The notes under the pieces are model-generated. The model did no database searches. It saw only the letters and a list, made by a program, of their open reading frames with translations, and was not told the origin of the DNA. A DNA stretch of 64,000 bases, taken from an uncultured Acidobacteriota bacterium (GTDB lineage Bacteria > Acidobacteriota > Terriglobia > Terriglobales > Acidobacteriaceae). The position numbers and the translations under genes were made by a program. Shown here piece after piece: positions 4,226-63,606 of the stretch. Each line of letters starts with the position of its first letter. The stretch's first letter is position 1. The DNA is taken from positions 127,381 through 191,380 of the forward strand of contig CAWEGL010000001.1 of the NCBI GenBank assembly GCA_963808795.1, written 5' to 3'.

Positions 4226-4241
4226 TGTGACGGCGATCACA
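4226..4241. promoter_or_regulatory. CRP-type binding site
   Basis: TGTGA-CGGCGA-TCACA, a perfect consensus. Confidence 0.75.
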
Positions 4242-5240: not shown

Positions 5241-5954
5241 TTAAGCAGCAAGGCGTTCGAGTTGCTCGTGCCTGACGATAGTCAGGCACGAGCCGTGAAT
5301 GGTGATCCACTGGTTACGACGGAACTGGTTTAAGGAGCGCGTAACGGTTTCCCGCGATGTTCCGGTCATGTTGGCGATCTCTTCGTGCGTCAGCGCCATG
5401 GTGAAACGGATCTCGGATTTGCCGTCAGCCGCTGCGTGCCCCCATTCAAGCAAGAGACGCGCCAGCCTCCCTGCCGACGAGCCCGGCAGCGCCAGTCGCT
5501 GGGCATCGTGAAATGCAGTGAGGTACTCGGTGGAGAGCATCTGCGCCGCGTGCATGGAGGCGATACCGTGGCGGCCCAAGAACTCGATGAACTCACACTT
5601 GTGCATGATCTTGACTCGGCATGGCTCGATGGTCTCTGCGGTGGCTTCGTGCAAAACATTCTCGAGTATTGCGCTCAGGCCCAGCACCTCCCCGGGGCCG
5701 GCGATCTTCAAGATCATGGTTTTGCTATCGCGTGAGGTGGTAGAGATTTTCACCTGCCCGGAGCAAATCACGAAGACGTTCCGTACCGGGTCGCCCTCGG
5801 AAAACAGCTTGGCTCCGGGAGCCGGGCTCATCATGAATCCGATCTTTTCGTAATCGGTAAGCGTCGCCGCCGTGAAGTTGCAGAAGGTTAGTTGATGGCG
5901 AAACTCACAACTCAAACAGTCTTCCGGTGCGTGATGCAGGTAAAGCGAAGCCAT
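5241..5954 (-). CDS. Crp/Fnr family regulator with an N-terminal Cys cluster
   Basis: CLSC-x8-C at the N-terminus; cNMP-fold GPGEVLG; HTH EEIANMTGTSRETVTR. Confidence 0.92.
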   Translation of the reverse strand: MASLYLHHAPEDCLSCEFRHQLTFCNFTAATLTDYEKIGFMMSPAPGAKLFSEGDPVRNVFVICSGQVKISTTSRDSKTMILKIAGPGEVLGLSAILENVLHEATAETIEPCRVKIMHKCEFIEFLGRHGIASMHAAQMLSTEYLTAFHDAQRLALPGSSAGRLARLLLEWGHAAADGKSEIRFTMALTHEEIANMTGTSRETVTRSLNQFRRNQWITIHGSCLTIVRHEQLERLAA

Positions 5955-6172
5955 TGCGTTACTCCCGGGAATAAACGCTCCAGGTCCCGGAACACGACTG
6001 GGACGCGCCTCGGACACCCACAGGCATCGGCGCGCACATAGCGCCTACTCGGTGTCCTCAAGTGGTCGGAGACTTGAAGCTTTCACTTTGTTAGCTCGAA
6101 CGCGATCCCTCGGGGGACCTGGGAAACATCCAAGCGCTATGAGTAGCATGGCACCACCTCGTCACACGGATA

Positions 6173-6206
6173 TGTGACGGCGATCACATCTGTGATAGGG
6201 ATCACA
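6173..6206. promoter_or_regulatory. Two tandem perfect CRP-type boxes
   Basis: TGTGA-CGGCGA-TCACA (6173-6188) and TGTGA-TAGGGA-TCACA (6191-6206), in the divergent region upstream of the crp/fnr gene. Confidence 0.85.
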
Positions 6207-21492: not shown

Positions 21493-21710
21493 CTCCAGTT
21501 CATCTCATCGATCCCGTCATCCGCTTCATCCATCCATGCGCACTCACATGGGCCTCGATGTGCGGTGGCGCGAACATTCCAGCGCCGCCGGCTTCAGTTG
21601 CGGCGACGATGGCACAACGAAGCGTGACCGCCATCACCGCGCATGCAATCCAGCCATTCTATGCTAATGGCGTAATTGCGGAATTGCTCAAATACGGAGT
21701 AAGCGCCGGG

Positions 21711-22079
21711 ATGACTAATACCATCGGAGAAACATCGTGCGAAATGCTGGGCAACTTCTTTGCCACGCTTGCGCACACCACGCGCATGCGCATCTTCTGC
21801 GCGCTGCAGCACGAGGCGAAAACCGTTACAAAGATTGCCGATGAGGCGGGCATATCCATCACCAATGCGTCGCAGCATCTGCGCTTGATGCGGGACCGCG
21901 GCGCGGTGACCGCGGAAAAACACGCGCAGAGCGTGTACTACCGGATCGCCGATCCGCGGTTCTTGGAGGCGGCGATGTTGATCCGCGCGGCATTGTCGGA
22001 GCGGTTGCGCCAGAGCGCGGATCGTACTTCGGGCCGCGCGCCCCGCCGCGGGACGCAGAGAGTTCTTCAACCCGCGTGA
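21711..22079 (+). CDS. ArsR/SmtB family regulator (BigR/SqrR-like alpha2 Cys)
   Basis: LAHTTRMRIFCAL ... NASQHL ... VYY. Confidence 0.88.
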   Translation: MTNTIGETSCEMLGNFFATLAHTTRMRIFCALQHEAKTVTKIADEAGISITNASQHLRLMRDRGAVTAEKHAQSVYYRIADPRFLEAAMLIRAALSERLRQSADRTSGRAPRRGTQRVLQPA

Positions 22080-22120
22080 GCGCATTGAGCGCGTTTGCGC
22101 AAATCATGGAGGATTGTTCG

Positions 22121-22372
22121 ATGAGCGATGCAGTTGCAACCGTAACCGCCGACAAGGTGATCGACGCGCGGGGAACCGCGTGTCCCGGTCCCCTGCTCGA
22201 GGCCAAGAAGGGCATTGGCGCGGTAAAGGTGGGTCAGATTATCGAGATCAAATCCAACGACAAGGGTTCGCGCAAGGATATCGCTGCGTGGGCCGGCAAA
22301 ATGGGCCACGAGTTTCTCGGCTTCATCGAGGCCGAGGGATACGACCGTCTGCTGGTGCGCAGGAAGAAGTAG
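22121..22372 (+). CDS. tusA: TusA-family sulfur carrier
   Basis: IDARGTACPGP motif; GGAGG RBS. Confidence 0.92.
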   Translation: MSDAVATVTADKVIDARGTACPGPLLEAKKGIGAVKVGQIIEIKSNDKGSRKDIAAWAGKMGHEFLGFIEAEGYDRLLVRRKK

Positions 22373-22466
22373 CTTCTTCCCAAGAGTCGAACGCTCATGC
22401 GCCGGTGTCAGCGGGCCGGCGGCATTTGTGGCGCCCGATGCGGACGATGAAGCGACGAGGTGCGGC

Positions 22467-22961
22467 ATGAGTGAGCCGTTCATAGCGAAGATTCTGGTTC
22501 TGGCTACGGAAAGATGCGCATATCCAGGCGCAGATGCCGTGGGCAAGGCGCACCCGGAATATCCATCCAATGTGTACATTCTCCGCGTGCTTTCGCCGGT
22601 GCTCTTCCCCGAGGATTTCTATCTTAGCTGCTACGGCAAGGGCATCGACGGCATCTTGATTGCAGCCTGCGGCTCCGATTGCCCCTATTGCGGCGCCTAC
22701 GACCGGCTGGCTGCGCGAATCGACTCGCTGACTTCCCGGATGAGTGCAGGCAAGCTGGGAATTGAGCGCATTCGCCTCACCGCCATTTGCACGGTGTGCA
22801 TCAAAGCATTTCTCAAAGAAGTGGCGATGATGGGCGAGGCTCTTCAGCGGCTCGGACCGGTGGACCGGCCCCTGGCAGAGCGGCTGCGGTGCGAGTCGGT
22901 AGAGCGCCTACAGTCGGCCGCCCGCACTCCGCAGTTTGCCGCGGCGCACGGAGGGCTGTGA
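22467..22961 (+). CDS. MvhD/FlpD-like iron-sulfur subunit with a variant Cys set
   Basis: CAYPGAD, GIDGILIAACGSDCPY, ERIRL. Confidence 0.82.
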   Translation: MSEPFIAKILVLATERCAYPGADAVGKAHPEYPSNVYILRVLSPVLFPEDFYLSCYGKGIDGILIAACGSDCPYCGAYDRLAARIDSLTSRMSAGKLGIERIRLTAICTVCIKAFLKEVAMMGEALQRLGPVDRPLAERLRCESVERLQSAARTPQFAAAHGGL

Positions 22962-24274
22962 TGAACACTCACATCGACTCCAACTACGCGCCGGATGTGC
23001 TTGTGGTAGGAGGCGGAATCGCCGGGCTGCAATCGGCGCTCGATCTGGCCGACCAGGGGCTGAAGGTGCTTGTGGTGGAACGGCAGGCGAGCATCGGCGG
23101 ACACATGATCGGGCTCAGCAAAGTGTTTCCCACGCTGGACTGCGCAAGCTGCATCACCACGCCGAAGATGTCCGCTGCGGCGCATCACGAGAACATCGCC
23201 ATCCTTACTAACACCGAAGTGGAGGGTATCGAATCTACAAACGGAGTGCACCGCATGAGGCTTCTGCAGAAGCCTACTTATGTGAACTTCGACAAATGTG
23301 TCGGCTGCCGATTGTGCGAATACGCCTGCGATACGGAGTATCCCGATCCCTTCGAGGAGGGATTGGGCGCGGTGCGGGCCATCGCCGTTCCGTTTACGAA
23401 TGCGATTCCTCAGAAGGCCGTGTTGGATGCCGAGCATTGCGGCACCTGCGGGATCTGCGCGCGCGTTTGTCCGACGGAGGCGATCGAGTTCGACCAGCAG
23501 CCGCGGCGGCTGACGATTCAGACGGATGCGGTCATTTTGGCTTCGGGGTTCCGCCTGAATGCGATGACCGTGAAGTCGCAGTACAACGCTGCGCACAGCA
23601 GGAACATTGTTTCGCCGCTCACGCTGGAGCGGCTGCTGGCGCCGCACGGACCGTATGGCCGCGTGTTGCGGCCTTCGGACGGCAAGATTCCCTCTTCGAT
23701 TGCGTTCGTGCAATGCGCAGGGTCGCGCGATGAATCGATTGGCGTGCCCTATTGCTCGCGGGTCTGCTGCATGTACGCGATCAAGCAGGCCATGTTGCTT
23801 TCGGGCGCGCTGCCGCTGGCCGACATCGCGATCTACTACATGGACATTCGCGCCTTCGGCAAGGGGTACGAGCAGTTCTATCAGAACGCAAGGGCGATGG
23901 GCATCAACTTTGTGCGCGGCAAGGTGGCGCGCATTCAGCCAGTGGATAGCGGGGATCTGCTGCTGCGCCTGGAGAGCACGGAAGACGCGGAGAACCCATT
24001 GGCGGAGCACCGGCACGACCTGGTGGTGCTGGCGCAGGGGATGATTCCGGGCTGGAATCCAGGGGACGCCACGCCGGTTGCGTGCGCCAGCGACGGCTTT
24101 GTGTCCACGCCGGCGTTGACTGCGCCCACGGCGACCACGGCGCCGGGCATCTTTGTGGCGGGCGCGGCGTCGGGACCGAAGGACATTGTGGACACCATTG
24201 CCGAGGCGGGCGCGGCGGCCATGCAGGCCAGCGAGTACCTCTACCAAAAGAGGGCCGAGGTCCTGGCAGGGTAA
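22961..24274 (+). CDS. HdrA/QmoA-like flavoprotein lacking the HdrA N-terminal domain
   Basis: GGGIAG FAD motif, VFPTLDCASC, two CxxCxxCxxxC, QCAGSRD, YCSRVCC. Confidence 0.92.
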   Translation: MNTHIDSNYAPDVLVVGGGIAGLQSALDLADQGLKVLVVERQASIGGHMIGLSKVFPTLDCASCITTPKMSAAAHHENIAILTNTEVEGIESTNGVHRMRLLQKPTYVNFDKCVGCRLCEYACDTEYPDPFEEGLGAVRAIAVPFTNAIPQKAVLDAEHCGTCGICARVCPTEAIEFDQQPRRLTIQTDAVILASGFRLNAMTVKSQYNAAHSRNIVSPLTLERLLAPHGPYGRVLRPSDGKIPSSIAFVQCAGSRDESIGVPYCSRVCCMYAIKQAMLLSGALPLADIAIYYMDIRAFGKGYEQFYQNARAMGINFVRGKVARIQPVDSGDLLLRLESTEDAENPLAEHRHDLVVLAQGMIPGWNPGDATPVACASDGFVSTPALTAPTATTAPGIFVAGAASGPKDIVDTIAEAGAAAMQASEYLYQKRAEVLAG

Positions 24275-24307
24275 GACGCAATCGGGGGAGCGCACGAGAG
24301 GCGGGCG

Positions 24308-26203
24308 ATGAGCGAGAGCGATCGAAAGCGCAAGGATGAGCGGCACGGCGGAGACGAGAAGCTGCGCATCGGCGTGTACATCTGCCGCTGCGGCGGAAAC
24401 ATCTCCGACGTGGTCGACGTGGAGCGCGTGGCGGAGACGGTGCGGTCGATACCCGGCGTGGCCACCGCGAAAGTGCACACCTTTGTCTGCTCCGACCCCG
24501 GCCAACAGACGATCTCGAACGACATCCTCGAGGAGAGTCTCGACCGCGTTGTTGTGGCCTCGTGCTCGCCCTTCCTGCACGAGCAGACCTTCCGCGGCGC
24601 CGTCTCGCGCGGCGGCATGAATCCTTATCTCTACGAGCACGTGAACATCCGCGAGCAGGCGTCGTGGGCGCACAAGCACGATCCGGCTGGCGCAACCGCC
24701 AAGGCCATCCGCCTGATCGCCGCGGCGGTAGGCAAGCTACGGCACGCCACGCCTCTCGAACAAATCAAGCTGCCCAATCACCGGCGCGCATTGGTCATCG
24801 GCGGAGGCATTGCGGGAATGAAAGCGGCTTCCGATTTGGCCGGGCGCGGAATTAAGGTGCTGCTGGTGGAAACTTCGCAGCGGCTTGGAGGGTGGGTCAA
24901 CGAGGTGGGCCGCATCTACCCCAGCGAGCGCTCCGCCGATGAGCTGGTCCGCGAGTTGGAGCGCCAGGTGCGTCAGAACCCCAACATTGAAGTCCTACTT
25001 GAAAGCAAAGTCGTCACGGTGAGCGGTTTCATCGGCAACTTCAAGGTTGCGGTGGAGTCTGTGCGCGGCGATGCGGTCGCGCCACGGGTCGAGCCGAGGG
25101 CCGAAGCGACGGTGGGCGCCATCGTGATGGCGACGGGCTTTCGTCCTTACGTGCCACGGGACGGCGAATTCCTGTATAAGGCCGACCGCCATGTGCTGAC
25201 CATGCCGGAGTTTATCCGCCACATGCGGACCGTGGACCCCGCTGCGCGCCGGCTCGCCTTTGGCAACTGCGAGATCCGCAAGATTGCGTTTCTCCACTGC
25301 GTGGGCAGCCGGCAACTGGACGGCGTTCACGAGCCGCCACCGGGCGGAAAGCTGAACACCTACTGCTCGCGCACATGCTGCACCACGATCCTGCAGCAGG
25401 CGCTTGCGGTGCGCAGGCAGTTTCCGCGGGTCGGCGTCTTCGACTTCCATCGCGACATCCGCAGCTACGGCCGCGGCGAAGAGAGCTATTACACCGAGGC
25501 AAGCAAGGCTGGCGTGGTCTTCTTCTGCTACAACGGCGAAGAGCCTCCGCGCGTGGAGAAAACCGCTCCGGATCGGGCGCGAGACGGCGCGCTCTCCGTC
25601 ACCGTGAAGGATGCGCTCACATGGGGCGAGGAACTCACCGTCCCCGTGGATCTGGTTGTGCTCGGCGTGGGGATGATGCCGGGGCCGATAGGGGACCTTA
25701 TCGAACAAATGAAGCTGCCAACGGGCGAGGACGGGTTCCTCCAGGAGGTCCATCCCAAGCTGCGGCCGGTGGAGATGTCTGTAAACGGCGTGCTGCTGGC
25801 GGGCACGGCGCAGGGGCCGATGAATATCCAGGAGACGCTAGCCGCCGCCGGGGCAGCGGCTGCGAAGGCCGCGGCGATGTTCGCCAAAAAGGACGTGGAG
25901 CTGAATCCGCATGTGGCCGTCGTGGACCTTGCGCTCTGCCGCGGCGAGGCGCAGTGCGTCACGCAGTGCGATTACGAGGGCGCGCTGAAGATGGTTTCGA
26001 TGGAATTGGATGGCGAAACCATCGCGCACGCGCAGGTGAATGCCGGGCTGTGCGTTGGCTGCGGCGCGTGCGTTGCCGTGTGCCCCCACCGCGCCATCGA
26101 CCTGAACGGCTGGCGCATTGACCAGTACGAGGCCATGGTCGACGGTATTGCGGCCGGGATTCCCGGCCAGGAATGCCCAGCCGATCTGGTGGCCATTCAC
26201 TAA
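24308..26203 (+). CDS. Second HdrA-like flavoprotein with N-terminal domain and C-terminal ferredoxin
   Basis: GVYICRCGGNI, ASCSP, NIREQ, GGGIAG, HCVGSR, YCSRTCC, CVGCGACVAVCP. Confidence 0.92.
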   Translation: MSESDRKRKDERHGGDEKLRIGVYICRCGGNISDVVDVERVAETVRSIPGVATAKVHTFVCSDPGQQTISNDILEESLDRVVVASCSPFLHEQTFRGAVSRGGMNPYLYEHVNIREQASWAHKHDPAGATAKAIRLIAAAVGKLRHATPLEQIKLPNHRRALVIGGGIAGMKAASDLAGRGIKVLLVETSQRLGGWVNEVGRIYPSERSADELVRELERQVRQNPNIEVLLESKVVTVSGFIGNFKVAVESVRGDAVAPRVEPRAEATVGAIVMATGFRPYVPRDGEFLYKADRHVLTMPEFIRHMRTVDPAARRLAFGNCEIRKIAFLHCVGSRQLDGVHEPPPGGKLNTYCSRTCCTTILQQALAVRRQFPRVGVFDFHRDIRSYGRGEESYYTEASKAGVVFFCYNGEEPPRVEKTAPDRARDGALSVTVKDALTWGEELTVPVDLVVLGVGMMPGPIGDLIEQMKLPTGEDGFLQEVHPKLRPVEMSVNGVLLAGTAQGPMNIQETLAAAGAAAAKAAAMFAKKDVELNPHVAVVDLALCRGEAQCVTQCDYEGALKMVSMELDGETIAHAQVNAGLCVGCGACVAVCPHRAIDLNGWRIDQYEAMVDGIAAGIPGQECPADLVAIH

Positions 26204-26223
26204 CGGCAGAGAGGAGACGAGCC

Positions 26224-26541
26224 ATGGCAATGAGGGCGCTGACTCAGGAGCAGAAAAAGGCGTTGGCCGCATTGCGCCAACGCATCGGCGGCATCGGCGA
26301 AGAGAAGCGCCAGGCGCAGCGGCATCTTATGACCGCGCGCAAGTCGATCCTGAAGTTTTTAGAGGCGAAGCCCGCAACCGTTCCGCAGATCGCCCGGGCG
26401 CTTGAGATGCCTGCCGATGAGGCGCTGTGGCATGTAACGGGAATGCGCAAGTACGGGAAGGTCATCGAGACCGGCGAAGACGGCGACTATCCGCTTTACG
26501 CGCCGGTCGTCTTTGAAGAACAGGCTGCGGCCGGGCACTGA
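26224..26541 (+). CDS. Small winged-helix-like protein
   Basis: ATVPQIARALEMP...WHVTGMRKYGKV; located inside the operon. Confidence 0.65.
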   Translation: MAMRALTQEQKKALAALRQRIGGIGEEKRQAQRHLMTARKSILKFLEAKPATVPQIARALEMPADEALWHVTGMRKYGKVIETGEDGDYPLYAPVVFEEQAAAGH

Positions 26542-26554
26542 GAGAAGGTTCGAC

Positions 26555-27727
26555 ATGGCGCGCATTGTGGATAGCTCGTTGTTGCGGAAGATCGAGCTGC
26601 ACGGAGCCGGGGGCGCTCTGGATGTGGGCGCCTGCTTCAACTGCGGGAACTGCACGGCGGTGTGCCCCCTGGCCGAGGATACGGGCGGCTTTCCGCGGCG
26701 CATGATCCGCATGGCCCAGGTGGGGATGGAACGCGAACTGCTGGCCGGCGAAGACTTGTGGCGCTGCTACGCATGCGGCGAGTGCACGCGCACCTGTCCG
26801 CGCCAGGCCGACCCGGCTGAATTCATGGCCGCCGCGCGCAGCTACGCCATCTCGCGTTACGACTTTACCGGGCTCGCAGGGCTGGTGAATCGCTCCGCAT
26901 TCGGCAATCTGCTCGTCTTCGCTCTCTTTTCCGTGATCTTTGAGTTTGTTCTCTCGATCGAAGCGAATCCCGTGGGACCGCAGGCCGCGCTCTTCGACTT
27001 TCTTCCAGGATGGTGGGTTCACTCGATTGGCGTGGCGCTCTTTGCGGTTGTGGGCCTCAGCATGATTTTCGGAATGGCCTCGATGTGCGCGCACTTCCGG
27101 GCCGTACGCTGCCGCGAAGGTTCGGCGATGCGGCTCGCGGCGTTTCCGGGCGCCGCGATTTCGGGCCTCCTCGACGCGCTGCTGCATAGGCGCTTCCGGC
27201 AGTGTACCTCGGCCCAAGACGCCGCGGATTCGCCTAAAGAGCCCATCCTTCTGCGCACGTGGTTCGTGCATGCAACAGTAATGGGCGGCTTTCTGGCCAT
27301 GCTGCTCGCCACCACCCTCGACTATCTCTTCAAGCCCATCGGCTCGCCGGTCCCGCCTTGGTATCCGGTGCGCCTGCTCGGCGCCGTGGGCGGCGTGGTG
27401 TGCCTCTACGGCCTCACCGTCGTTCTGGTGCGCCGTCTTCGAGCCCGGGACGTTCCCTGGCGCAAGAGCGCATTATCCGACTGGTTCTTTCCCTTGCTGC
27501 TTTACGCCACGGTGCTCACCGGACTGGCAACGGAGCTTGCCGTCTATCTGCCTTTGGGCACGCTTGGCCATGCGGTCTTCTTCGTCCACGTGGTGCTGGC
27601 CATGGACCTGATCGCAATGCTGCCGCTCACAAAGTTTGCTCATGTGCTCTACCGCACGCTGGCGCTGGTTTTGTTTTCATGGCAGCGCGCGTCGGTGCGG
27701 ATAACCGCGGCCGACGCGCAGGCTTAG
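26555..27727 (+). CDS. QmoC-like protein: HdrC-type 2x[4Fe-4S] plus a heme-b-type membrane domain
   Basis: CFNCGNCTAVCP and CYACGECTRTCP, then about 6 TM helices with His residues (FVHA, VHVV, FAHV). Confidence 0.85.
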   Translation: MARIVDSSLLRKIELHGAGGALDVGACFNCGNCTAVCPLAEDTGGFPRRMIRMAQVGMERELLAGEDLWRCYACGECTRTCPRQADPAEFMAAARSYAISRYDFTGLAGLVNRSAFGNLLVFALFSVIFEFVLSIEANPVGPQAALFDFLPGWWVHSIGVALFAVVGLSMIFGMASMCAHFRAVRCREGSAMRLAAFPGAAISGLLDALLHRRFRQCTSAQDAADSPKEPILLRTWFVHATVMGGFLAMLLATTLDYLFKPIGSPVPPWYPVRLLGAVGGVVCLYGLTVVLVRRLRARDVPWRKSALSDWFFPLLLYATVLTGLATELAVYLPLGTLGHAVFFVHVVLAMDLIAMLPLTKFAHVLYRTLALVLFSWQRASVRITAADAQA

Positions 27728-27765
27728 CGTCTCGATGTCCGTTTTCTTGAAAGGAGCTGAAAAAC

Positions 27766-28326
27766 ATGACCGAAACAGCAACCGCACCCGATCTGCAACA
27801 GGCGATCGAGCAGTTGACGGCGCGCGTCGATGCGCTTGAGCAATCCGCCGGCAACGGGAGGCTCTCCATCGGCGTGATGAGCGGCAACCTGGATACGACC
27901 ATGGCCGCGTTCATCATCGCGCTTGGCGCCGTGGCCTACGACCTGGAAGTGGATATGTTCTTTACCTTCTGGGCCACCGCGGCGCTGCGCGATCCGAAGA
28001 AGTCGCCGCACAAGGGATTTCTCGACAGAATGTTCGGCTGGATGCTGCCACGCAGCTCCTACGTCCTGCCGCTCTCCAAGATGCAAATGGCCGGCATCGG
28101 ACCCAGGATGATCCGCTCGGTGATGAAGTCGCGCGGCGTCAAGTCTCTCGAACAACTGATGAAGGATGCCGCCGAGTTCGGGGTTCGCATCCACGTCTGC
28201 GAGATGTCGATGGGCGTGATGGGGCTAAAGGAGGAGGAGATGATCGACTACCCCGGCATCGACTACGTGGGCGTAGGTTCGTTCATTCAGATGATCGGCG
28301 AATCGAAGCAGGTTGTGTTCCTATGA
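27766..28326 (+). CDS. DsrE/DsrF/DrsH-like sulfurtransferase
   Basis: MFFTFWA..ALR ... HVCEMSMGVMG. Confidence 0.88.
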   Translation: MTETATAPDLQQAIEQLTARVDALEQSAGNGRLSIGVMSGNLDTTMAAFIIALGAVAYDLEVDMFFTFWATAALRDPKKSPHKGFLDRMFGWMLPRSSYVLPLSKMQMAGIGPRMIRSVMKSRGVKSLEQLMKDAAEFGVRIHVCEMSMGVMGLKEEEMIDYPGIDYVGVGSFIQMIGESKQVVFL

Positions 28327-40622: not shown

Positions 40623-40662
40623 CGTGACGGCGATCACAGACCGTAGGTTGGCTATATGGCAA
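40623..40662. promoter_or_regulatory. CRP-type box plus a candidate ArsR operator
   Basis: CGTGA-CGGCGA-TCACA (40623-40638); imperfect palindrome TTGGCTATATGGCAA (40648-40662) just before arsR. Confidence 0.65.
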
Positions 40663-40691
40663 TGTGGTCAATAAGGAAACTTAGTGGCACG

Positions 40692-40985
40692 ATGGACAAA
40701 CGGAATCCCTTTATGAAACAGGCCAGGATGCTCAAGGCGTTGGCTCACGAGTCCCGCCTGATGATTGTGGACCGGCTGAGTCGCGGAGAATGCTCCGTTG
40801 GGGATCTTAGGGATCTCGTCGGCGGCGATCTGTCGACCGTTTCCAAACATCTGGCCCTGCTGCGTGCGCACGGGATCGTCGAGGACAGGCGTGAGGGCAC
40901 GACTGTGTACTACAGGTTGCTGACGCCCTGCGTGTGCAACTTCTTCACCTGCGCTACGCAGGTTCTCAAGGAAAGATCGAGGTAG
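40692..40985 (+). CDS. ArsR-family regulator with a C-terminal Cys cluster
   Basis: LKALAHESRL, STVSKHL, PCVCNFFTC. Confidence 0.9.
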   Translation: MDKRNPFMKQARMLKALAHESRLMIVDRLSRGECSVGDLRDLVGGDLSTVSKHLALLRAHGIVEDRREGTTVYYRLLTPCVCNFFTCATQVLKERSR

Positions 40986-40988
40986 ATC

Positions 40989-41234
40989 ATGCAGATCCAA
41001 ATATTGGGCACGGGCTGCAGTAAATGCGAGATGCTGACGGCGAACGCAGAGAAAGCGGTTCAGGAGCTTGGGTTGAATGCGGAGATCGAGAAGGTCACGG
41101 ACATTCAGGACATCATGAAGTTCCAGATTCTGATGACTCCCGGTTTGGTGATTGACGGAAAGGTCAAGACTGCAGGCCGCATACCACCTCCGGAAGAAAT
41201 CAAGAAGATGCTCCAGGAAGCGGGAGGTAATTAA
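40989..41234 (+). CDS. Small thioredoxin-like redox-active disulfide protein (MTH895/TM0996 type)
   Basis: ILGTGCSKC, MTPGLVIDG. Confidence 0.9.
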   Translation: MQIQILGTGCSKCEMLTANAEKAVQELGLNAEIEKVTDIQDIMKFQILMTPGLVIDGKVKTAGRIPPPEEIKKMLQEAGGN

Positions 41235-41612
41235 ATGGCTGACGAACGTCCTGGTTTGGTGATGTGTGTCTGCACCGGCAAGTGTCCCGGCTTCGAGAAG
41301 ATGGATATCTGGGATTTCATCAATCGGGCTCGCGTCGAACTGCCGGTCGAATTTGGCGTGATTCATCCGCAACTGTGCGAACAGGATGGAGACCGCTTCC
41401 TGGCCGATTTTCTTGAGGCCAAGCGGCCTCTGGTCATCGCGGCCTGCGCACCCAACATGCAGTTCAAGATGTTCCGCGATGCCTTTGCAGCGAAGGGGAT
41501 GGATGTGAAGCGGGACATGACTCCGCTGGACATCCGTGACATGACAACCGACGAGGCCGTCGAGAAGGTCGCTACAGCTCTCCGCGAAATGGGGGTAAAA
41601 GAAGATGTCTGA
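41235..41612 (+). CDS. Stand-alone homologue of the HdrA N-terminal domain
   Basis: MCVCTGKC..HPQLC..LVIAACAP..FR..DIR aligns by eye with ICRCGG..TFVC..VVVASCSP..FR..NIR of 24308..26203. Confidence 0.65.
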   Translation: MADERPGLVMCVCTGKCPGFEKMDIWDFINRARVELPVEFGVIHPQLCEQDGDRFLADFLEAKRPLVIAACAPNMQFKMFRDAFAAKGMDVKRDMTPLDIRDMTTDEAVEKVATALREMGVKEDV

Positions 41613-41892
41613 CACGACTTTCATGGGAGTGCCGCGAGATAAAATCCCGTGGTTTCCGACGATTGACTACAACAAATGCACTTTCTGTATGGAGTGCGAC
41701 ACCTTCTGTCCACACCACGTGTATGAGCGGCGGGATGGCGACCGGAAACTGGTGGTGGCGAACCCGAACAATTGCGTCGTGTTTTGCCGCGCCTGCTCGA
41801 AGACCTGCGGCCCGGAAGCTCTGTCGTTTCCCGACAAGACAGAAATTCTTGCCCAAATCAAGCAAATTCGCGCCGAGGAGAGTGTCAAATGA
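41605..41892 (+). CDS. 2x[4Fe-4S] ferredoxin
   Basis: CTFCMECDTFCP and CVVFCRACSKTC. Confidence 0.9.
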   Translation: MSDTTFMGVPRDKIPWFPTIDYNKCTFCMECDTFCPHHVYERRDGDRKLVVANPNNCVVFCRACSKTCGPEALSFPDKTEILAQIKQIRAEESVK

Positions 41893-42734
41893 CTCGCGCC
41901 ATTCTCGCCTGCAGCGGTCTGGACAAACCCGAAGGCTCGGTAGCGCGGGAAGTGGCAATCCGCGTCGCCGCGGCCACGGGCAGCGAAATCATTTGCCCGG
42001 TGCTGCTGAATCGGGCACCGGCGCGCTATAAGAAGGCGCTCGGTGAGAGCGCTCTGATCGTTGTCGATGGTTGCCCCACACGCTGTGCGAGCAAACTGGC
42101 AACCACCCTTCAGGCGACCGTAGATCGGAAGGTTCTGATTTCCGATGCCGTAAAGGCAACCGGCCGGTCGCTGAAGCCCGCGCTCACGCTCGCGCCGGAT
42201 GACCTTGCACTGACGCAGTCTATCGTCGATGAGCTGGTGCGCAACCTGAACACGCCCGCACCAGTTGAGGAGCTGGCGAGTGCATTCGAATCGCCAACCG
42301 AATACCTGGTCGTAACTCACGACAAGTTTGAATTCCGCATTCCCGCTGTGGACTACCTCTTCAATGAGAACGACGTCTGGGTCCGGGCACTGGACGGCGT
42401 TGCGCGCGTCGGTATCTCCGACTACATGCAGCAGAAGCTGACCGACATCAACTACTTCGATCCGCCGAAGACGGATGGATCCGTGGAACAGTTCGGTGAA
42501 CTGGGCACGCTCGAATCGGCCAAAGCTGTATTCGAGATCATTGCGCCGGGAAGCGGTTCCATCGTTGCCGTTAACCCGGCCGTCGTCGCCAATCCGGGAC
42601 TCATCAACGAAGATCCTTACGGCGCCGGCTGGCTTGTTGAACTGAAACTGACCGCCTGGCAGCAGGATGTCGAGTTGCTCCTGGACGGCGGCGCGTATGC
42701 GGATGTGGTCAAGCGCAAAGCAGCCGAGGATTGA
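41889..42734 (+). CDS. DGC-domain (putative Zn/Cys) protein fused to a GcvH-like lipoyl carrier
   Basis: N-terminal ACSG..ICP..VDGCPTRCA; C-terminal RVGISDY, LESAKAV (lipoyl Lys), NEDPYGAGWL. Confidence 0.88.
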   Translation: MTRAILACSGLDKPEGSVAREVAIRVAAATGSEIICPVLLNRAPARYKKALGESALIVVDGCPTRCASKLATTLQATVDRKVLISDAVKATGRSLKPALTLAPDDLALTQSIVDELVRNLNTPAPVEELASAFESPTEYLVVTHDKFEFRIPAVDYLFNENDVWVRALDGVARVGISDYMQQKLTDINYFDPPKTDGSVEQFGELGTLESAKAVFEIIAPGSGSIVAVNPAVVANPGLINEDPYGAGWLVELKLTAWQQDVELLLDGGAYADVVKRKAAED

Positions 42735-42747
42735 GAGGGTGAGCCGA

Positions 42748-43176
42748 ATGACGAACGACTTTCGAGAAAAGACGGTATTGGTGATCCCGTGCAGCGGGAT
42801 CGGAAAAGTCCACGGTTTGATTGGCCGCGAGGCGACCTACCAGGTGACAGAAGAGCTGGCGCCCCAACAGACCGAAACGATGTGTCTCGCGCTTCTCGTG
42901 AAAGGCGACACGGATGCGGTCGCCGCAGTGCAGACGCATCCCTGCATCACCATCGACGGCTGCGCCAAGGCCTGCGCGCAGAAGAATGTTGAGATGGCCC
43001 GCGGTCAGGTCGCGAAGGCAATTCAGGTGGCCGAAGCCTTCAGAAACTTTCGCGGTGCGAAGCCGGGCAGCGCCACGTCCCTGACAGAAGACGGATGGAA
43101 CATTACGCGGCACGTCGCCGGCGCCGTTGCTTGCGAGGCGAGCCGCGTAGCAGCGAGCGGGGAGACGATTCGATGA
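42748..43176 (+). CDS. DGC-domain protein
   Basis: IPCSG, MCL, IDGCAKACA. Confidence 0.88.
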   Translation: MTNDFREKTVLVIPCSGIGKVHGLIGREATYQVTEELAPQQTETMCLALLVKGDTDAVAAVQTHPCITIDGCAKACAQKNVEMARGQVAKAIQVAEAFRNFRGAKPGSATSLTEDGWNITRHVAGAVACEASRVAASGETIR

Positions 43177-43871
43177 GCGCGGACGTCACGAAGGTTGGCA
43201 TCATCTCGTGCAGCGGCGAGGCAATTCCGGAGGGCACGGTTTCGCGCCTCGCAACACGCAGGGTCCTGGAACTGCTGCGCCCGGATGTGACCGTCACGCT
43301 TTGTCTGCCGCTGTTTTTAGCGGGCAACGAAGGCGAGCGAAACTTTGCCCGGACCCATCCGACCATTACAGTGGATGGCTGCTCGAAGCAGTGCGCCAAG
43401 TGGGGCACCGAGAAGCACAGCAGCCCGGTAAGCAGCGCTCTGGTGGTATCGGAGATTCTGGGGAACGCGGGCGCCGCGTGTCATCGCTCCTGCCGCGAGG
43501 TATCGGAGACAGACCTGGAAGCAGTTTGGGCCGTTGCCGAGCGCATCGCTGCCGAAGTGGATGCGGTCCTGGCGACGGACGCCCCGCGCGACGCGGCAGC
43601 AAAAACCAGCAAGGGCCAGTGCGCCTGCTCCAGCCCGATTCCTGGAGGAACCGTCACGGTCAGGGAAACGAATGTGACCATACCCGGTCTGACCTTGATC
43701 TTTGCGCAATGCGCAGAGCGCGGCATTCCGGCCGAAGGCGGAGATGGCGCGGCGTTAATCGATGCCGTCAGAATCTATCACGCGATCGGCCCGGAAGATG
43801 AGGCAGAATATCGAGCCGCTCTTATCGAGGCATATCGAAAGTTCCGGAGCGGAATGAGCGGAGGAAAATGA
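43173..43871 (+). CDS. DGC-domain protein with an extra C-terminal domain (CxC)
   Basis: ISCSG, LCL, VDGCSKQCA; CHRSC; QCACSS. Confidence 0.85.
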   Translation: MSADVTKVGIISCSGEAIPEGTVSRLATRRVLELLRPDVTVTLCLPLFLAGNEGERNFARTHPTITVDGCSKQCAKWGTEKHSSPVSSALVVSEILGNAGAACHRSCREVSETDLEAVWAVAERIAAEVDAVLATDAPRDAAAKTSKGQCACSSPIPGGTVTVRETNVTIPGLTLIFAQCAERGIPAEGGDGAALIDAVRIYHAIGPEDEAEYRAALIEAYRKFRSGMSGGK

Positions 43872-44620
43872 TGGACGTCCTCTGTTGGTCAGCTCCAAGT
43901 GTCGCCGAGAATCTCGCCCTCGATGTGGAGTTGGCGAAATCGGCCTGGTCGACGGGTCGGCGACTCGTTCGCTTCTGGTGGGGCGATGGGCCTGCGGTCG
44001 TGATGGGATCGAGCGAGCGGCCCGAGGATGTAGTGGACGCGTCCGCCTGCGAAGCGTTTGGCGTTGCGGTTCTCAAACGATGCAGCGGAGGAGGCACGGT
44101 ACTCCAGACCAGCGGAGTGCTGAACTACTCGCTGATTACCCCGGCACCCGGCGATCTCAACGTGGGAGCGTCCTTTCGCCACGGCACAAATCTGATCTGC
44201 GCAATTCTTGCCGGCCTTGGGGTAACAGGCGTACCGCAGGGCACCTCGGATGTAACCGTTGGAAACTGCAAGATCTCAGGCAACGCGCAGGCCCGGCGCT
44301 GGAAGGCGCTGCTGGTGCACGGCACGCTGCTGGTGGATTTTGATTTTGCCCTGGCGGAGAGGGCTCTACTTCATCCGCCACGCGAGCCGGAGTATCGCCG
44401 GGGACGGAACCATCGCGACTTTCTGGTGACCCTGGGTGCTCTGGGCGTTCATGCAAGCCGCATTGAGATCGAGAAGGCGGCGATTCATGCTGCGGGGGAA
44501 CTCTTCGGCGGCGCGAGCCTGCGACCGGGTTCCACCGCTTCGCACCTCCCGGCGCCTGTCATTCCGTCGGCGTCAAGCATCCAGCCGGAAATCTTCGAGG
44601 CTCAGGAACGTCAGCCTTAG
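43868..44620 (+). CDS. Lipoate-protein ligase (BPL/LplA catalytic domain only)
   Basis: ENLALD, KRCSGGGTV, KISGNAQ, LVHGTLL. Confidence 0.9.
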   Translation: MMDVLCWSAPSVAENLALDVELAKSAWSTGRRLVRFWWGDGPAVVMGSSERPEDVVDASACEAFGVAVLKRCSGGGTVLQTSGVLNYSLITPAPGDLNVGASFRHGTNLICAILAGLGVTGVPQGTSDVTVGNCKISGNAQARRWKALLVHGTLLVDFDFALAERALLHPPREPEYRRGRNHRDFLVTLGALGVHASRIEIEKAAIHAAGELFGGASLRPGSTASHLPAPVIPSASSIQPEIFEAQERQP

Positions 44621-44655
44621 GAGAATTTTTGCATTGTGAATGAGAGGAGATATTC

Positions 44656-45030
44656 GTGAATTCTGAACAGAAACCCACCGTGGATCAAGTCTTCGGTATG
44701 ATGCGCAAAACCATGGGGTCAATCCCATCCGCGATTGAGAAGGCGACCTCCGTCGATGAAGGGCTGCTCTATGAGCATCTGCGTTCGAGAGCCTACGCAA
44801 TGCCTGCGGAGGGGGCTCTCGATGAAGAGACGCGCACCCTGATCTATCTTGCGTCGGCGCTTGCTGGCAGCAGCAAGGCGTGCATTCAAGCAATGGCTAA
44901 CAAGGCGAAGATGCAGGGCATCGCGCCGGAAAAAGTGTTGGAGACGGTACGCATTGTGCGGTTCGCACTGGCGACCAAGGTCGTCGGGGATGCGGAGCCG
45001 GTTTTCGAGGCGCTGCGAAGCGTCGAGTGA
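44656..45030 (+). CDS. CMD/AhpD-like protein with one Cys
   Basis: GALDEETRTLIYLASALA..SKAC..A...G...E...E. Confidence 0.7.
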   Translation: MNSEQKPTVDQVFGMMRKTMGSIPSAIEKATSVDEGLLYEHLRSRAYAMPAEGALDEETRTLIYLASALAGSSKACIQAMANKAKMQGIAPEKVLETVRIVRFALATKVVGDAEPVFEALRSVE

Positions 45031-55851: not shown

Positions 55852-56103
55852 ATGCCCCTCAAGCTGATTCGAGCCACAGAACTCGCGGAATTCGTCTATT
55901 GCTCGCGCGCATGGGAGCTGAAGTACCTCCGAGGTGTTGAGCCGTCACGCGAAGCCCGGCAACTTCAGATCGAAGGAAACGCCTGGCACGCCGCTCAAGG
56001 GCAGGTGCTCGCCCGCATCGACAGCCTTCGCTGGGCGGCTTACGCCGCTCTGGCGCTTGCAGCGCTTCTCTTCGCATTCTCCTGGCTGGGGTGGGCGCGA
56101 TGA
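55852..56103 (+). CDS. Cas4 N-terminal fragment with a C-terminal TM helix
   Basis: IRATELAEFVYCSRAW (first Fe-S Cys), GNAWH, then a hydrophobic helix. Confidence 0.75.
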   Translation: MPLKLIRATELAEFVYCSRAWELKYLRGVEPSREARQLQIEGNAWHAAQGQVLARIDSLRWAAYAALALAALLFAFSWLGWAR

Positions 56104-56630
56104 CTCTTTCCGTCATGGCGGCAACCCTCGCCGTTCTCGCGCTCGTGCTCTTCCTGCTGGCGGCGCAGTCGAGGAAACGAATCGGAATCCCCGCCGGTGC
56201 GCTCTTCTATCAGGATCTGCCCGGACAACCGTTTTATGGAAAGCCGCTGCGTTCGCACACCCTCGGCATTTCCGGAAAGCCCGATTGCCTGATCCGCACC
56301 GCCGAGGGCATTGTCCCCGTCGAATTGAAGAACGCGAGCAAGCCTCCAGCCCGCGGAGAGGTCTATCCAAGCCACATTATCCAGGCTGTGGCGTACTGCG
56401 CCCTGGTCGAGGATCAGATGAAGATCTCCGCACGCTACGCCCTGGTGATCTATGCCGGCCACCAGGTGCGCAGGGTAGAGTTTACCGACCAGCGCCGGCG
56501 GTGGCTTCTCGACACGATCCGACAGGTCCAAGTCGCGCGTGAGCGCAACACCGCGAATCGCAACCACGATCACCGGGCGCGGTGCGCCTGCTGTGGCGTC
56601 CGTTCACACTGCGATCAGGCGCTTCCGTGA
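56100..56630 (+). CDS. cas4: Cas4-like PD-(D/E)xK nuclease with an N-terminal TM helix
   Basis: GKPDCL, PVELK, QAVAY, C-x2-C-x5-C (CACCGVRSHC); ATGA overlap. Confidence 0.85.
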   Translation: MTLSVMAATLAVLALVLFLLAAQSRKRIGIPAGALFYQDLPGQPFYGKPLRSHTLGISGKPDCLIRTAEGIVPVELKNASKPPARGEVYPSHIIQAVAYCALVEDQMKISARYALVIYAGHQVRRVEFTDQRRRWLLDTIRQVQVARERNTANRNHDHRARCACCGVRSHCDQALP

Positions 56631-62788: not shown

Positions 62789-63394
62789 TTACGCCACGCG
62801 CAGGTGGTCGCCGCGGTAGACTTCGGCGCCGGGAACGGCCACCTGGTTTTGGACAGCCTGTTTGATGGCCTCGTTGTTGGGTGCCGCGTCCTGAATCGAT
62901 GCCATGAGCGGACGACTGAGGTCCTCCGGGAGGCTCTCGATCAATCTTTCCCACAAGGGCCCGTCGATTCGCGCCGCAACGATTCGATAGTGCATCGGTA
63001 CCTGCGTCTCATCGGTGAACCGGACTGAATCCTGACTGTTCTTCTGGATTCGGAGCGTGAATTCTCGGCCTTCGATCTTCTTGAGATCACGGCTCTTGAG
63101 GTAATACATCACCATGTACTTCGTCTGCGTCGATTTGCGCTCGCTGCTGCGAGCGCGCTCCTGTAGTCGAGTTGCTTCGCTCCGGCAGTACTGGATGCGC
63201 GCCTCCATCATGCGGAGGAAGCGTCCAATACGGTCGGCCTTTTCGCTGTGCGCCTCGCAGAACTGCTGGAATCGCTCCATCAATTTGGCAGAAGCCTCAC
63301 CGTGACTCTCGATCTCTTCTTCGATCTCGTCGAGGAAGGTGTCGAGTTCGCGGTCGATTTCAAACAATGAATGTTCCTGCGCCAGTGATGACAT
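62789..63394 (-). CDS. Siphovirus Gp157-family protein
   Basis: SLFEI..EL; coiled coil; KIEG..FTLRIQKN; PNNEAIK.A...V.VPGAEV..G.HLR; AGGAGG RBS. Confidence 0.85.
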   Translation of the reverse strand: MSSLAQEHSLFEIDRELDTFLDEIEEEIESHGEASAKLMERFQQFCEAHSEKADRIGRFLRMMEARIQYCRSEATRLQERARSSERKSTQTKYMVMYYLKSRDLKKIEGREFTLRIQKNSQDSVRFTDETQVPMHYRIVAARIDGPLWERLIESLPEDLSRPLMASIQDAAPNNEAIKQAVQNQVAVPGAEVYRGDHLRVA

Positions 63395-63414
63395 GAGAAA
63401 CCTCCTGCATGCGC

Positions 63415-63448
63415 AAAAAGCCCACGCAGAGAAGGGGCGTGGGCGTTT
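63415..63448 (-). terminator. Intrinsic terminator directly upstream of the gp157 RBS
   Basis: gcccacgc/gcgtgggc stem followed by TTTTT on the minus strand. Confidence 0.7.
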
Positions 63449-63606
63449 CAAAGCCTGTTTGTTGCTTGTTCAGAATTCAGGATGAGTCGGTATCAGCGTT
63501 CTCGAAGCGTTCCGCGAAAGCGACGCATTCGAAAAAACAGAACTCAAGCGCTAGATGAAGCGAAGTGGGGATGCTCAATCCGCCGAGAGTGGCGGCGGAC
63601 TCCGCG

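Follow-up and report, generated by a model that had tools for sequence, protein, structure and literature searches.

An Hdr/Qmo-like membrane complex encoded together with the sulfur carriers TusA and DsrE in Acidobacteriaceae: apparently neither canonical QmoABC nor sHdr, and possibly a quinone-linked oxidoreductase of sulfane sulfur

Complexes of the Qmo and Hdr type play a central part in the reduction of sulfate, the oxidation of sulfur and methanogenesis, and the mechanism of Qmo, in particular whether it involves confurcation of electrons, is still unsettled. Canonical (type I) QmoABC, as found in sulfate reducers and Chlorobi, consists of two HdrA-derived flavoproteins, an MvhD module fused to QmoB, and the membrane anchor QmoC, and it works with the enzyme AprAB. 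The sHdr-LbpA system, encoded as dsrE3-tusA-hdrC1B1A-hyp-hdrC2B2-lbpA, is cytoplasmic, and the MvhAGD-HdrABC complex of methanogens, which carries out flavin-based electron bifurcation, contains, next to HdrA and MvhD, the subunits HdrB and HdrC and a hydrogenase. Finally, proteins termed type II Qmo are nearer to HdrA, are found in organisms that have Dsr and Apr as well as in ones that lack them, and have a role that needs experiments (PMC10504309; Chernyh 2020/Neukirchen 2023). Here, we describe an eight-gene operon at positions 21711-28326 of a 64-kb stretch of a 277-kb acidobacterial contig (this whole stretch being referred to below as the window), which encodes a relative of these complexes together with the small sulfur carriers TusA and DsrE. 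Judging from the sequence, the operon may encode an oxidoreductase that is linked to quinone, is perhaps electron-bifurcating and has TusA/DsrE-borne sulfane sulfur as its substrate, a reading on which our own judgement is evenly balanced.

The eight genes all lie on the + strand, between the ATG of arsR at 21711 and the stop codon of dsrE at 28326, and the Pfam/NCBIfam matches and open reading frame (ORF) positions agree exactly with the gene list, order, strand and coordinates that had been given in an earlier note on this DNA. In order, and with lengths in amino acids (aa), they are:

21711-22079, + strand: ArsR/SmtB-family regulator, 122 aa (HTH_20, 1.6e-11; NF033788, 4e-20)
22121-22372, + strand: TusA sulfur carrier, 83 aa (PF01206, 1e-19; active-site motif ACPGP, of the form CPxP)
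22467-22961, + strand: stand-alone MvhD/FlpD-like iron-sulfur protein, 164 aa (PF02662, 1e-15)
22961-24274, + strand: short HdrA ('QmoA-like'), 437 aa (HdrA2 model positions 139-564, 1e-134)
24308-26203, + strand: long HdrA ('QmoB-like'), 631 aa (HdrA2 model, 9e-137; no FlpD domain)
26224-26541, + strand: winged-helix protein, 105 aa (HTH_20, 7e-6)
26555-27727, + strand: QmoC-like membrane subunit, 390 aa (NF038018, 202.2 bits against a cut-off of 300; Fer4 and a NarI-like membrane part)
27766-28326, + strand: DsrE-family (DrsE_2) sulfur-carrier-like protein, 186 aa (PF13686, 8e-43)

The distances between these genes range from an overlap of 1 nucleotide (nt), namely that of the mvhD stop with the start of the short hdrA, to 94 nt, which argues for a single operon with co-translated subunits.

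As far as alignment of orthologues can tell, the expected cofactor ligands are intact and invariant across the subunits of the complex. The short HdrA has a flavin adenine dinucleotide (FAD)/thioredoxin-reductase-like core, into which a 2x[4Fe-4S] ferredoxin domain is inserted, and also a CxxCC cluster; its 14 invariant cysteines belong to a DCxxC motif, the two ferredoxin motifs and the C...CxxCC cluster. The long HdrA, with 15 invariant cysteines, consists of the HdrA N-terminal cluster domain, the FAD core and a C-terminal ferredoxin domain. The short protein thus has DCxxC and lacks the N-terminal domain, the long one has the N-terminal domain and lacks DCxxC, and such a complementary split is the pattern one would expect of an HdrA-type heterodimer. 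In MvhD, residues C17, C68, C72, C108 and C111 are invariant within its own clade, and in the orthologues of TusA so is the cysteine of CPxP. The QmoC-like subunit joins an HdrC-like 2x[4Fe-4S] domain (two CxxCxxCxxxC motifs) to approximately six predicted transmembrane helices, and across its family 8 cysteines are kept together with 4 histidines (H239, H345, H363 and H156/H211), which lie in or next to the membrane helices and are candidate ligands for two hemes b. A QmoC cysteine unique to TusA-linked modules was sought and rejected, as C217 also occurs in canonical QmoC and C283 only in the window's clade. The DsrE-family protein carries an N-terminal helical extension, and its Cys145 (VCEMS) is present in 31/31 true orthologues; with the DsrE2 model it scores 61 bits against a cut-off of 210. 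Finally, the winged-helix protein has no cysteine and a charge near neutral, its gene always sits between those of the long HdrA and QmoC, and its 117 homologues all come from the window's clade. Its AlphaFold2 model (predicted local distance difference test score, pLDDT, 86) found in Foldseek only generic ArsR/SmtB and Z-alpha winged helices rather than a DsrD-like or other informative fold, and the fold does not decide between a subunit and a regulator.

Several features are shared with canonical QmoABC: both have two HdrA-derived flavoproteins, an MvhD module, and a QmoC anchor in which an HdrC-like 2x[4Fe-4S] domain is joined to a diheme b membrane domain, with identical cysteine and histidine ligands kept in the two, presumably as a link to menaquinone. 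That said, to judge by family models, scores, tree and gene context, the complex is not canonical QmoABC. The QmoC-like subunit falls about a hundred bits short of the NF038018 equivalog cut-off. With solved HdrA chains of methanogens the flavoproteins reach 362-383 bits (362-382 for the short HdrA), as opposed to 185-186 bits, at approximately 31% identity, against the canonical QmoA and QmoB of an aprBA-qmoABC locus (L059 in our numbering of loci). The long HdrA has no PF02662 domain, and mvhD is a separate upstream gene, placed first among the redox genes, whereas canonical MvhD is fused to QmoB. An extra winged-helix protein of approximately 100 aa stands between the B and C subunits, TusA and DsrE-family genes take the place of aprBA, and there is neither AprA nor Sat in the gene context, be it in the window or in the genome and metagenome loci surveyed below.

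A phmmer search with QmoC among 1.84 billion representatives gave 2754 relatives, 146 of them at E <= 1e-30, and the best full-length matches outside the window's clade were 35-44% identical. In a quick neighbour-joining tree on representatives, the window's clade lies among uncharacterised sequences, the proteins named QmoC by NCBI form a distant group (24-31% identity), and the Apr-linked QmoC proteins branch off at two points or more. Two Apr-linked loci served as controls, namely L059 (aprB-aprA-qmoA-qmoB-qmoC) and L061, from a Desulfofundulus-type Firmicute (sat-aprB-aprA-qmoA-qmoB-HdrD(CCG)-qmoC). In both, MvhD (FlpD) is fused to QmoB, and both lack the small protein, TusA and DsrE. An absence of iron-sulfur motifs from canonical QmoA, which would have been a further difference, was not borne out: the QmoA of L059 retains the cysteines of the ferredoxin insert, and the motifs are therefore not used here to set the two apart.

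By bit-score comparison the complex does fall under type II Qmo as described in PMC10504309: its flavoproteins are nearer to true HdrA than to type I QmoAB, and its QmoC lies outside the type I clade. It differs from the Apr-linked type II locus L061, which has a fused MvhD, an HdrD-like CCG protein and sat-aprBA, and has no TusA, DsrE or winged-helix protein. A sequence search of the PDB gave no solved Qmo structure. In the accessible full-text literature we found no description of a TusA-MvhD-HdrA-HdrA-winged-helix-QmoC-DsrE module, although an earlier mention is possible.

With sHdr-LbpA, the operon shares the combination of TusA/DsrE-family carriers with an HdrA-like flavoprotein, an ArsR-type regulator, and the idea of carrier-bound sulfur as the substrate. 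In particular, TusA and a DrsE_2 protein (of the DsrE3 or the DsrE2 subtype) are present where the sHdr cluster has TusA and a DsrE3-type sulfurtransferase. However, there is no soluble HdrC, no adjacent LbpA or ligase, and no HdrB1/HdrB2, PF02754 (CCG) being absent from the scanned ORFs and from all six frames; instead, there is MvhD, two complete HdrA and a quinone-linked membrane anchor, unlike in the cytoplasmic sHdr. Because it lacks HdrB, the system is not sHdr, so far as one can say from sequence. More generally, Pfam/NCBIfam scans of approximately 70 ORFs of the window revealed no AprA/B, Sat, DsrAB or CCG-domain (HdrB/HdrD) protein, and a six-frame hidden Markov model scan with AprA, AprB, Sat and CCG profiles gave no AprA, Sat or CCG match, its sole 'AprB' matches being 17-22-bit cross-matches to ferredoxin domains; all absences from the window reported here rest on these scans. 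The earlier note had likewise reported no HdrB, AprAB, Sat or DsrAB in the window and had concluded that the architecture is neither that of Qmo nor that of sHdr, and the scans, family cut-offs, bit scores, tree and context surveys bear it out on both counts. That LbpA would be missing as well is not strictly true of the window, which encodes a GcvH-like lipoyl protein (41889-42734) and an LplA-like ligase (43868-44620), for whose link to the operon we found no evidence.

As for the methanogen MvhAGD-HdrABC complex, MvhD is present, HdrA chains in the PDB are the best match of both flavoproteins, the HdrC-like domain of the QmoC-like protein matches HdrC with 53 bits, and the FAD domain and full set of HdrA cluster motifs are found, here split over two paralogues. 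The differences are that there is neither HdrB nor hydrogenase, that the HdrC part is fused, as the N-terminus, to a diheme membrane domain, and that in place of the methanogen HdrA homodimer two different paralogues, one truncated and one full-length, would pair.

Is this arrangement an oddity of one genome? A synteny survey, as the earlier note had proposed, shows that it is widespread. A scan of GTDB species genomes gave 48 loci, with flanks fetched up to 8-10 kb per side, many contigs being shorter. All 48 come from metagenome-assembled genomes (MAGs) of Acidobacteriaceae, Terracidiphilus, Granulicella, Acidobacterium, and unclassified Acidobacteria/Acidobacteriota, and none from a cultured isolate. 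In 34 of these Acidobacteriaceae MAG loci the eight genes all stand in the same order; in four others everything but arsR is detected, and a contig end truncates the remainder. The eight-gene arrangement is far beyond chance. What is more, the core from tusA to qmoC, with a DsrE-family gene, is common to seven distant lineages whose QmoC is only 27-41% identical to that of the window:

L051, QmoC 41%: TusA-FlpD-HdrA (434 aa)-HdrA (596 aa)-winged helix (101 aa)-QmoC-DsrE-ArsR-DrsE_2
L052/L053, QmoC 41%: DsrE-TusA-FlpD-HdrA-HdrA-101 aa-QmoC-PadR-hemerythrin
L054/L055, QmoC 37%: Crp/Fnr on the - strand, then DrsE_2-TusA-FlpD-HdrA-HdrA-winged helix (97 aa)-QmoC
L056, QmoC 31%: DrsE_2-DrsE_2-TusA-FlpD-HdrA-HdrA-93 aa-QmoC
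L057, QmoC 27%: ArsR-TusA-FlpD-HdrA-HdrA-100 aa-QmoC
L058, QmoC 31%: sigma-54 activator on the - strand, then TusA-FlpD-[GltD-like module fused to HdrA, 902 aa]-HdrA-83 aa-QmoC-DsrE and, further on, DrsE_2
L060, QmoC 32%: DrsE_2-TusA-FlpD-HdrA-HdrA-105 aa-QmoC

The small proteins of the seven lineages occupy the same position and are homologous (19-34% identity, with the shared pattern GP.TVPEIA...RKYG...Y.Y). TusA is the best conserved part, with 46-58% identity between the window and the distant modules, a degree that the redox subunits do not reach and that would suit a specific contact between proteins. The TusA and DsrE-family genes, which the earlier note had placed alongside the complex, are integral to the module, co-occurring with it across deep lineages. 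A metagenome scan added another 80 loci, whose QmoC is 29-68% identical. Of the 65 that leave room for it, 62 have the small protein immediately upstream of QmoC (63 if one counts L062, lost only to a distance cut-off); where there is at least 4.8 kb of room, TusA and MvhD are found upstream in 24 of 25 loci, and a DsrE-family ORF in 19 of 25. Within the flanks fetched, which reached 10 kb at most in the genome loci, neither AprA nor Sat occurs in any of the 80 metagenome or 48 genome loci, and no CCG/HdrB protein was seen in the gene contexts of the distant modules.

Some variants are informative as well. In L058 (3297-6005), the short HdrA forms one 902-aa protein with an NAD(P)H-binding module of the GltD/NfnB type (Fer4_20 and Pyr_redox_2), and at least eight metagenome loci show a repeated HdrA-domain hit pattern like that of this approximately 900-aa protein, as judged by the pattern only; loci with such a pattern are L067, L070, L088, L095, L096, L104, L108, L115 and L122. 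The fused variants point to a second, soluble electron carrier, and the nature of the added module hints that they use NAD(P)H as a third carrier of electrons. One locus of a Granulicella MAG (L050, 9026-11800) seems to preserve the module in decayed form: of the long HdrA just a piece is left, followed by the small protein, a QmoC of 52% identity and dsrE, with tusA, mvhD and the short HdrA undetected upstream. Some relatives fall in Heimdall-group archaea, going by cluster and protein names only.

For the regulatory region, an alignment of 40 loci covered the 200 nt that precede arsR. The elements found there, and the gene of a regulator that may act on one of them, are:

21624-21637, + strand: Crp/Fnr-type palindrome GTGACCGCCATCAC (GTGA-N6-TCAC), conserved in the 40-locus alignment
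21673-21695, + strand: putative ArsR operator, consensus TAgTTGCGgAATTaCGCAAaTAC (TTGCG-N6-CGCAA), a palindrome of the same alignment, between the -10 element and the ribosome-binding site
5241-6017, - strand: Crp/Fnr-family regulator with an N-terminal cysteine cluster CxxC-x9-C and a copy of the motif (6174-6187) upstream of its own gene

The Crp/Fnr-type palindrome is centred at approximately -41.5 from the transcription start that is predicted by a -10-like TATGCT at 21660-21665 (TAcAcT in the alignment), a spacing as in class II Crp/Fnr promoters. The second palindrome is likely the operator of ArsR; its copy in the window, TAATTGCGGAATTGCTCAAATAC, has two substitutions in the right arm. 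Within the window, GTGAC-N4-RTCAC occurs five times (at 4227, 6174, 10460, 21624 and 40624) as against 0.09 copies expected, a count matched by 0/100 shuffles. Apart from the copy at 4227, these stand upstream of the Crp/Fnr gene, in the divergon formed by a 1-Cys peroxiredoxin gene and an RND (resistance-nodulation-division) efflux operon, ahead of the arsR operon and upstream of another ArsR operon at 40.6 kb, which suggests a local Crp/Fnr regulon made up of the regulator's own gene, the peroxiredoxin/RND divergon, the Hdr/Qmo-like operon and the second ArsR operon. The Crp/Fnr protein encoded at 5241-6017 may be the one that binds the GTGAC-N4-GTCAC sites. Among the related Acidobacteriaceae loci, 28 have a copy of the motif, which in 26 stands immediately ahead of arsR; L057 too has one upstream of its ArsR gene, and Crp/Fnr genes adjoin the module in L054 and lie near it in L057. 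Control of the arsR operon by sigma-54 was considered and dropped: the only nearby site (21566) lacks the GC of the -12 element, and the genuine sigma-54 promoter precedes the FadL-like gene described below.

The ArsR protein itself keeps two cysteines in its aligned orthologues, C10 ('SCE') and C30 ('RIFCAL'), so that thiol-based sensing is possible. With the BigR model NF040642 it scores 37.9 bits against a cut-off of 155, and in place of the BigR/SqrR cysteine pair in alpha2 and alpha5 it has one cysteine at the N-terminus (C10), one in alpha2 (C30), and none near the C-terminus. A weak NCBIfam match to the 'TsoR' family (40 bits against a cut-off of 115) led nowhere.

A few kilobases downstream lies a set of genes that point to the handling of sulfide and sulfane sulfur:

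30993-32417, + strand: sigma-54 enhancer-binding activator, associated with the operon and outside it
32528-32543, + strand: sigma-54 -24/-12 promoter TGGCACGCAAGGTGCT, before the FadL-like gene
32619-33953, + strand: FadL/TodX-like outer-membrane protein, 444 aa, 26-28% identical to PF03349-matching proteins
34059-35291, + strand: type III sulfide:quinone reductase (SQR), 629 bits, above the cut-off of 525
35288-35992, + strand: DUF1641 protein
35996-36313, + strand: TusE/DsrC-family protein with a single C-terminal cysteine
36338-36808, + strand: second DrsE_2 protein (DsrE2)

A close orthologue of the activator (64-77% identity) is found within approximately 5 kb upstream of arsR in 21 related loci; in 20, the gene immediately before arsR is FadL-like (10 close orthologues and 10 at 26-28% identity). 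The promoter pattern TTGGC-N7-GTGC, together with two or three upstream repeats of the type GTTGCAAC, is kept in 11 loci, namely the window, L009, L014-L016, L018, L026, L028, L029, L046 and L047. Proteins of the FadL family import hydrophobic compounds, and the constant pairing of FadL with sulfur genes raises the speculative idea that this porin admits elemental sulfur or polysulfane. The SQR-DUF1641-TusE-DsrE2 genes lie less than 10 kb from the module in L024 and L049, as do TusE-DsrE2 in L019. Directly after dsrE, 14 related loci have a fusion of CoA-disulfide reductase (CoADR) with rhodanese (e.g. L040, 11881-13578), a type known as an NAD(P)H per/polysulfide or CoA-persulfide reductase. 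In this place, the window has citrate synthase and malate dehydrogenase, which, like the CarboxypepD_reg-domain protein and the GAF/sigma-54 activator upstream of the operon, are housekeeping or regulatory genes unrelated to it. The SQR, TusE, DsrE2 and CoADR-rhodanese neighbours point to the handling of sulfide and sulfane sulfur. What the earlier note had overlooked is the operon of type III SQR, TusE and DsrE2, the sigma-54 activator and the FadL-like porin that goes with it, the Crp/Fnr site, and how widely the module is spread.

In this respect, the locus resembles the operons for the homeostasis of reactive sulfur species, which combine SQR, CoA-persulfide reductase/Npsr and rhodanese/TusA with repressors such as CstR, SqrR or BigR: it has a thiol-containing repressor, TusA/DsrE, a nearby SQR and, in the 14 related loci, CoADR-rhodanese directly downstream, as well as a design in which sulfane sulfur is both made and reduced. 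Unlike in those operons, the candidate reductase is a multi-subunit membrane complex of the Hdr/Qmo type, not one flavoprotein, and unlike BigR-type repressors, the ArsR protein fails the BigR model and has another cysteine pattern.

The second ArsR-led operon (40656-45030, + strand) is preceded by a copy of GTGAC-N4-GTCAC and also holds two more DGC-domain proteins besides the following:

40656-40985, + strand: second ArsR
40989-41234, + strand: thioredoxin-like CxxC protein
41235-41612, + strand: stand-alone HdrA-N-terminal-like [4Fe-4S] protein
approximately 41608-41892, + strand: 2x[4Fe-4S] ferredoxin
41889-42734, + strand: fusion of a DGC domain with GcvH (GcvH 105 bits against a cut-off of 117)
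43868-44620, + strand: LplA-like lipoate ligase
44656-45030, + strand: CMD/AhpD-like protein

A minus-strand ORF at 40668-41624, within this operon, is probably spurious. The operon may be an uncharacterised lipoyl-dependent redox system. Its GcvH-like and LplA-like genes lie 14-16 kb downstream of the module, the GcvH/LplA operon is absent from the flanks (up to 10 kb) of all 48 related loci, and of the 708 homologues of the DGC-GcvH fusion across Terriglobales none of the top matches was assigned to a contig bearing QmoC; the two genes are probably unrelated to the module.

How might the complex work, if it is indeed an oxidoreductase of carrier-bound sulfane sulfur? The two HdrA-type flavoproteins would pair as a heterodimer, to which the long one would supply the N-terminal cluster domain and the short one DCxxC. 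The separate MvhD and the small winged-helix subunit would join them, and the QmoC-type anchor, with its 2x[4Fe-4S] domain and two hemes b, would link the flavins to the menaquinone pool, while the TusA and DsrE-family carriers would serve as partners where canonical Qmo uses AprAB. The likeliest and simplest reaction would be Cys-S-SH + 2[H] <-> Cys-SH + H2S; alternatively, a bridged species of the form carrier-S(n)-carrier would be cleaved or formed. The reaction would be coupled to menaquinone/menaquinol, and a second, low-potential carrier would probably join via the ferredoxin domains of HdrA, namely ferredoxin or, in the GltD-fused variants, NAD(P)H. A Fnr/Crp-type activator at the -41.5 site would switch the operon on and the two-Cys ArsR would repress it, the operon forming part of a wider sulfide/sulfane-sulfur response with the sigma-54-driven FadL-like porin, the type III SQR, TusE and DsrE2. 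Finally, the Fnr-type site and the neighbouring enzyme of the NAD(P)H persulfide-reductase type favour the reductive direction under oxygen limitation, in which sulfane sulfur or S0 would be an electron sink or would be detoxified at low oxygen; this is the least secure step of the scheme.

In terms of energetics, the potential E0' of S0/HS- is approximately -270 mV, as compared to -74 mV for menaquinone and approximately -450 mV for ferredoxin. This places S0/HS- about midway between the other two, so that a scheme of bifurcation or confurcation, running in either direction, would be energetically feasible. One can imagine it as a flavin-based bifurcation between sulfide and protein-bound persulfide, TusA-SH + H2S <-> TusA-S-SH + 2e-, with one electron passing to menaquinone via QmoC and the other to ferredoxin or NAD(P)+, a specific version that we consider decidedly unlikely.

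Several points weigh against the involvement of the complex in sulfane sulfur chemistry. The main weakness of this reading is that no subunit has a recognisable thiol/persulfide site, be it the noncubane cluster of CCG/HdrB, a redox-active CxxC beyond the cluster ligands, molybdopterin or siroheme, and an unlinked catalytic partner is therefore possible. To our knowledge, HdrA and MvhD act solely as electron relays, which again allows for a partner encoded elsewhere. Moreover, reduction of a persulfide by quinol alone is not exergonic, so that confurcation is required, and the winged-helix protein could be a second regulator rather than a subunit. All carriers of the module that could be named are MAGs, and only one cultured organism turned up in the QmoC-like family, namely Desulfofundulus, whose version is Apr-linked. 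A search for sequencing runs gave no RNA runs and only four DNA metagenomes, from soil and freshwater sediment.

If the subunits are only relays and no sulfur-active site can be recognised, the module may be a generic, flavin-based bifurcating one between quinone, ferredoxin and NAD(P)H, whose partner on MvhD is not a sulfur carrier, with TusA/DsrE being regulatory, protective or a supply of sulfur for cofactors. The MvhD of methanogens docks hydrogenase or formate dehydrogenase, as seen in the PDB matches, and the GltD-fused variants would also suit such a module. However, neither of these enzymes nor any other partner recurs beside the module in the 8 lineages inspected by gene content; TusA and the DsrE-family protein are the sole invariant companions, TusA is conserved best of all, and the context (SQR, TusE, CoADR-rhodanese, the two-Cys ArsR) is one of sulfur, and we regard this alternative as unlikely. 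The carriers might also bring another form of sulfur. The complex would then be an analogue of adenosine 5'-phosphosulfate (APS) reductase, coupling quinone to TusA-S-SO3(-)/TusA-SH + sulfite, with TusA in the role of AMP. Homologues of TusA and DsrE3A have been reported to carry thiosulfonate (Liu et al. 2014, as cited in PMC8528874), and complexes working on the sulfite/APS couple are homologues of the module and are interleaved with it in the tree. Yet the module is linked to no enzyme that handles sulfite and to no sulfite transporter, SQR and CoADR-rhodanese close by indicate sulfide and sulfane sulfur rather than sulfite, and the chemistry would be without precedent for HdrA/MvhD, all of which makes this proposal improbable.

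A lipoate-dependent oxidation of sulfur as in sHdr, fed by TusA/DsrE and with HdrB and LbpA encoded elsewhere, perhaps in the 40.6-45 kb operon, is in our estimate very improbable. TusA, a DsrE-family protein, an HdrA-like protein and an ArsR-type regulator do make up the sHdr signature (PMC11094781, PMC6067878), and the window does have the second ArsR operon, with its DGC-GcvH fusion, LplA-like ligase, HdrA-N-terminal-like iron-sulfur protein, ferredoxin and the same motif ahead. Against it stand the lack of a CCG domain in the window, the fusion of the HdrC-like domain to a membrane anchor that sHdr lacks, the two full HdrA with MvhD in place of one reduced sHdrA, and the distribution of the GcvH/LplA operon, which the flanks of related loci lack and whose DGC-GcvH is widespread in Terriglobales on other contigs. 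Could this, in the end, be an ordinary QmoABC between menaquinone and an AprAB encoded elsewhere, with TusA/DsrE as incidental neighbours? The logic of the subunits is the same, Apr-linked QmoC proteins occur in at least two places of the same family tree, and some peat Acidobacteria do have aprBA-qmoABC (PMC6018796). That said, those dsr/apr-bearing peat Acidobacteria are without sqr, tusA and dsrE2 (PMC6018796), so that the module of the window represents a different kind of acidobacterial sulfur biology. The scores of QmoC and the flavoproteins, the unfused MvhD and extra small subunit, the retention of TusA and DsrE with the module across deep lineages and the absence of AprA/Sat from the window and from the fetched flanks of all surveyed loci likewise speak against it. 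An ordinary Qmo is contradicted by every test that was run, and we hold it to be extremely improbable.

Two other regions of the window deserve a brief mention. A fusion at 37342-38514 (- strand), consisting of an HgcA-like corrinoid domain, a membrane part and an HgcB-like ferredoxin, matches the HgcAB-like model NF043039 with 431 bits, above the cut-off of 285, and adjoins an S-adenosylmethionine-dependent methyltransferase (38511-39161, - strand); it is a paralogue of the mercury-methylation pair in an acidobacterium, with no function assigned. Several ORFs between 57.7 and 64 kb have no family match and, together with a Cas4/DUF83-like nuclease-domain protein (56091-56630) and a Siphovirus Gp157-like protein (62789-63451, - strand), may mark the remains of a prophage at the window's right end.

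Our results describe a widespread relative of Hdr and Qmo, found in soil and peat Acidobacteriaceae and in several further bacterial lineages, in which the enzyme partner is replaced by small sulfur carriers. The conserved promoter elements give regulatory predictions that can be tested directly. If the carriers are the substrate, the complex would constitute a new enzymatic route from sulfane sulfur to the quinone pool in abundant soil bacteria regarded as 'aerobic heterotrophs', with a bearing on cryptic sulfur cycling in wetlands. It would also offer a simpler system, with carriers instead of AprAB, for testing bifurcation in complexes of the Qmo type, and would help explain why type II Qmo occurs in organisms without Apr/Dsr (PMC10504309). 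Finally, if the bifurcation between sulfide and persulfide holds true, the organism could draw low-potential reductant from sulfide or, conversely, burn excess ferredoxin and quinol on sulfane sulfur, and the module would represent a broader and possibly ancestral family, from which the Qmo serving AprAB would have been derived at least twice, with fusion of MvhD and loss of TusA, DsrE and the small subunit.

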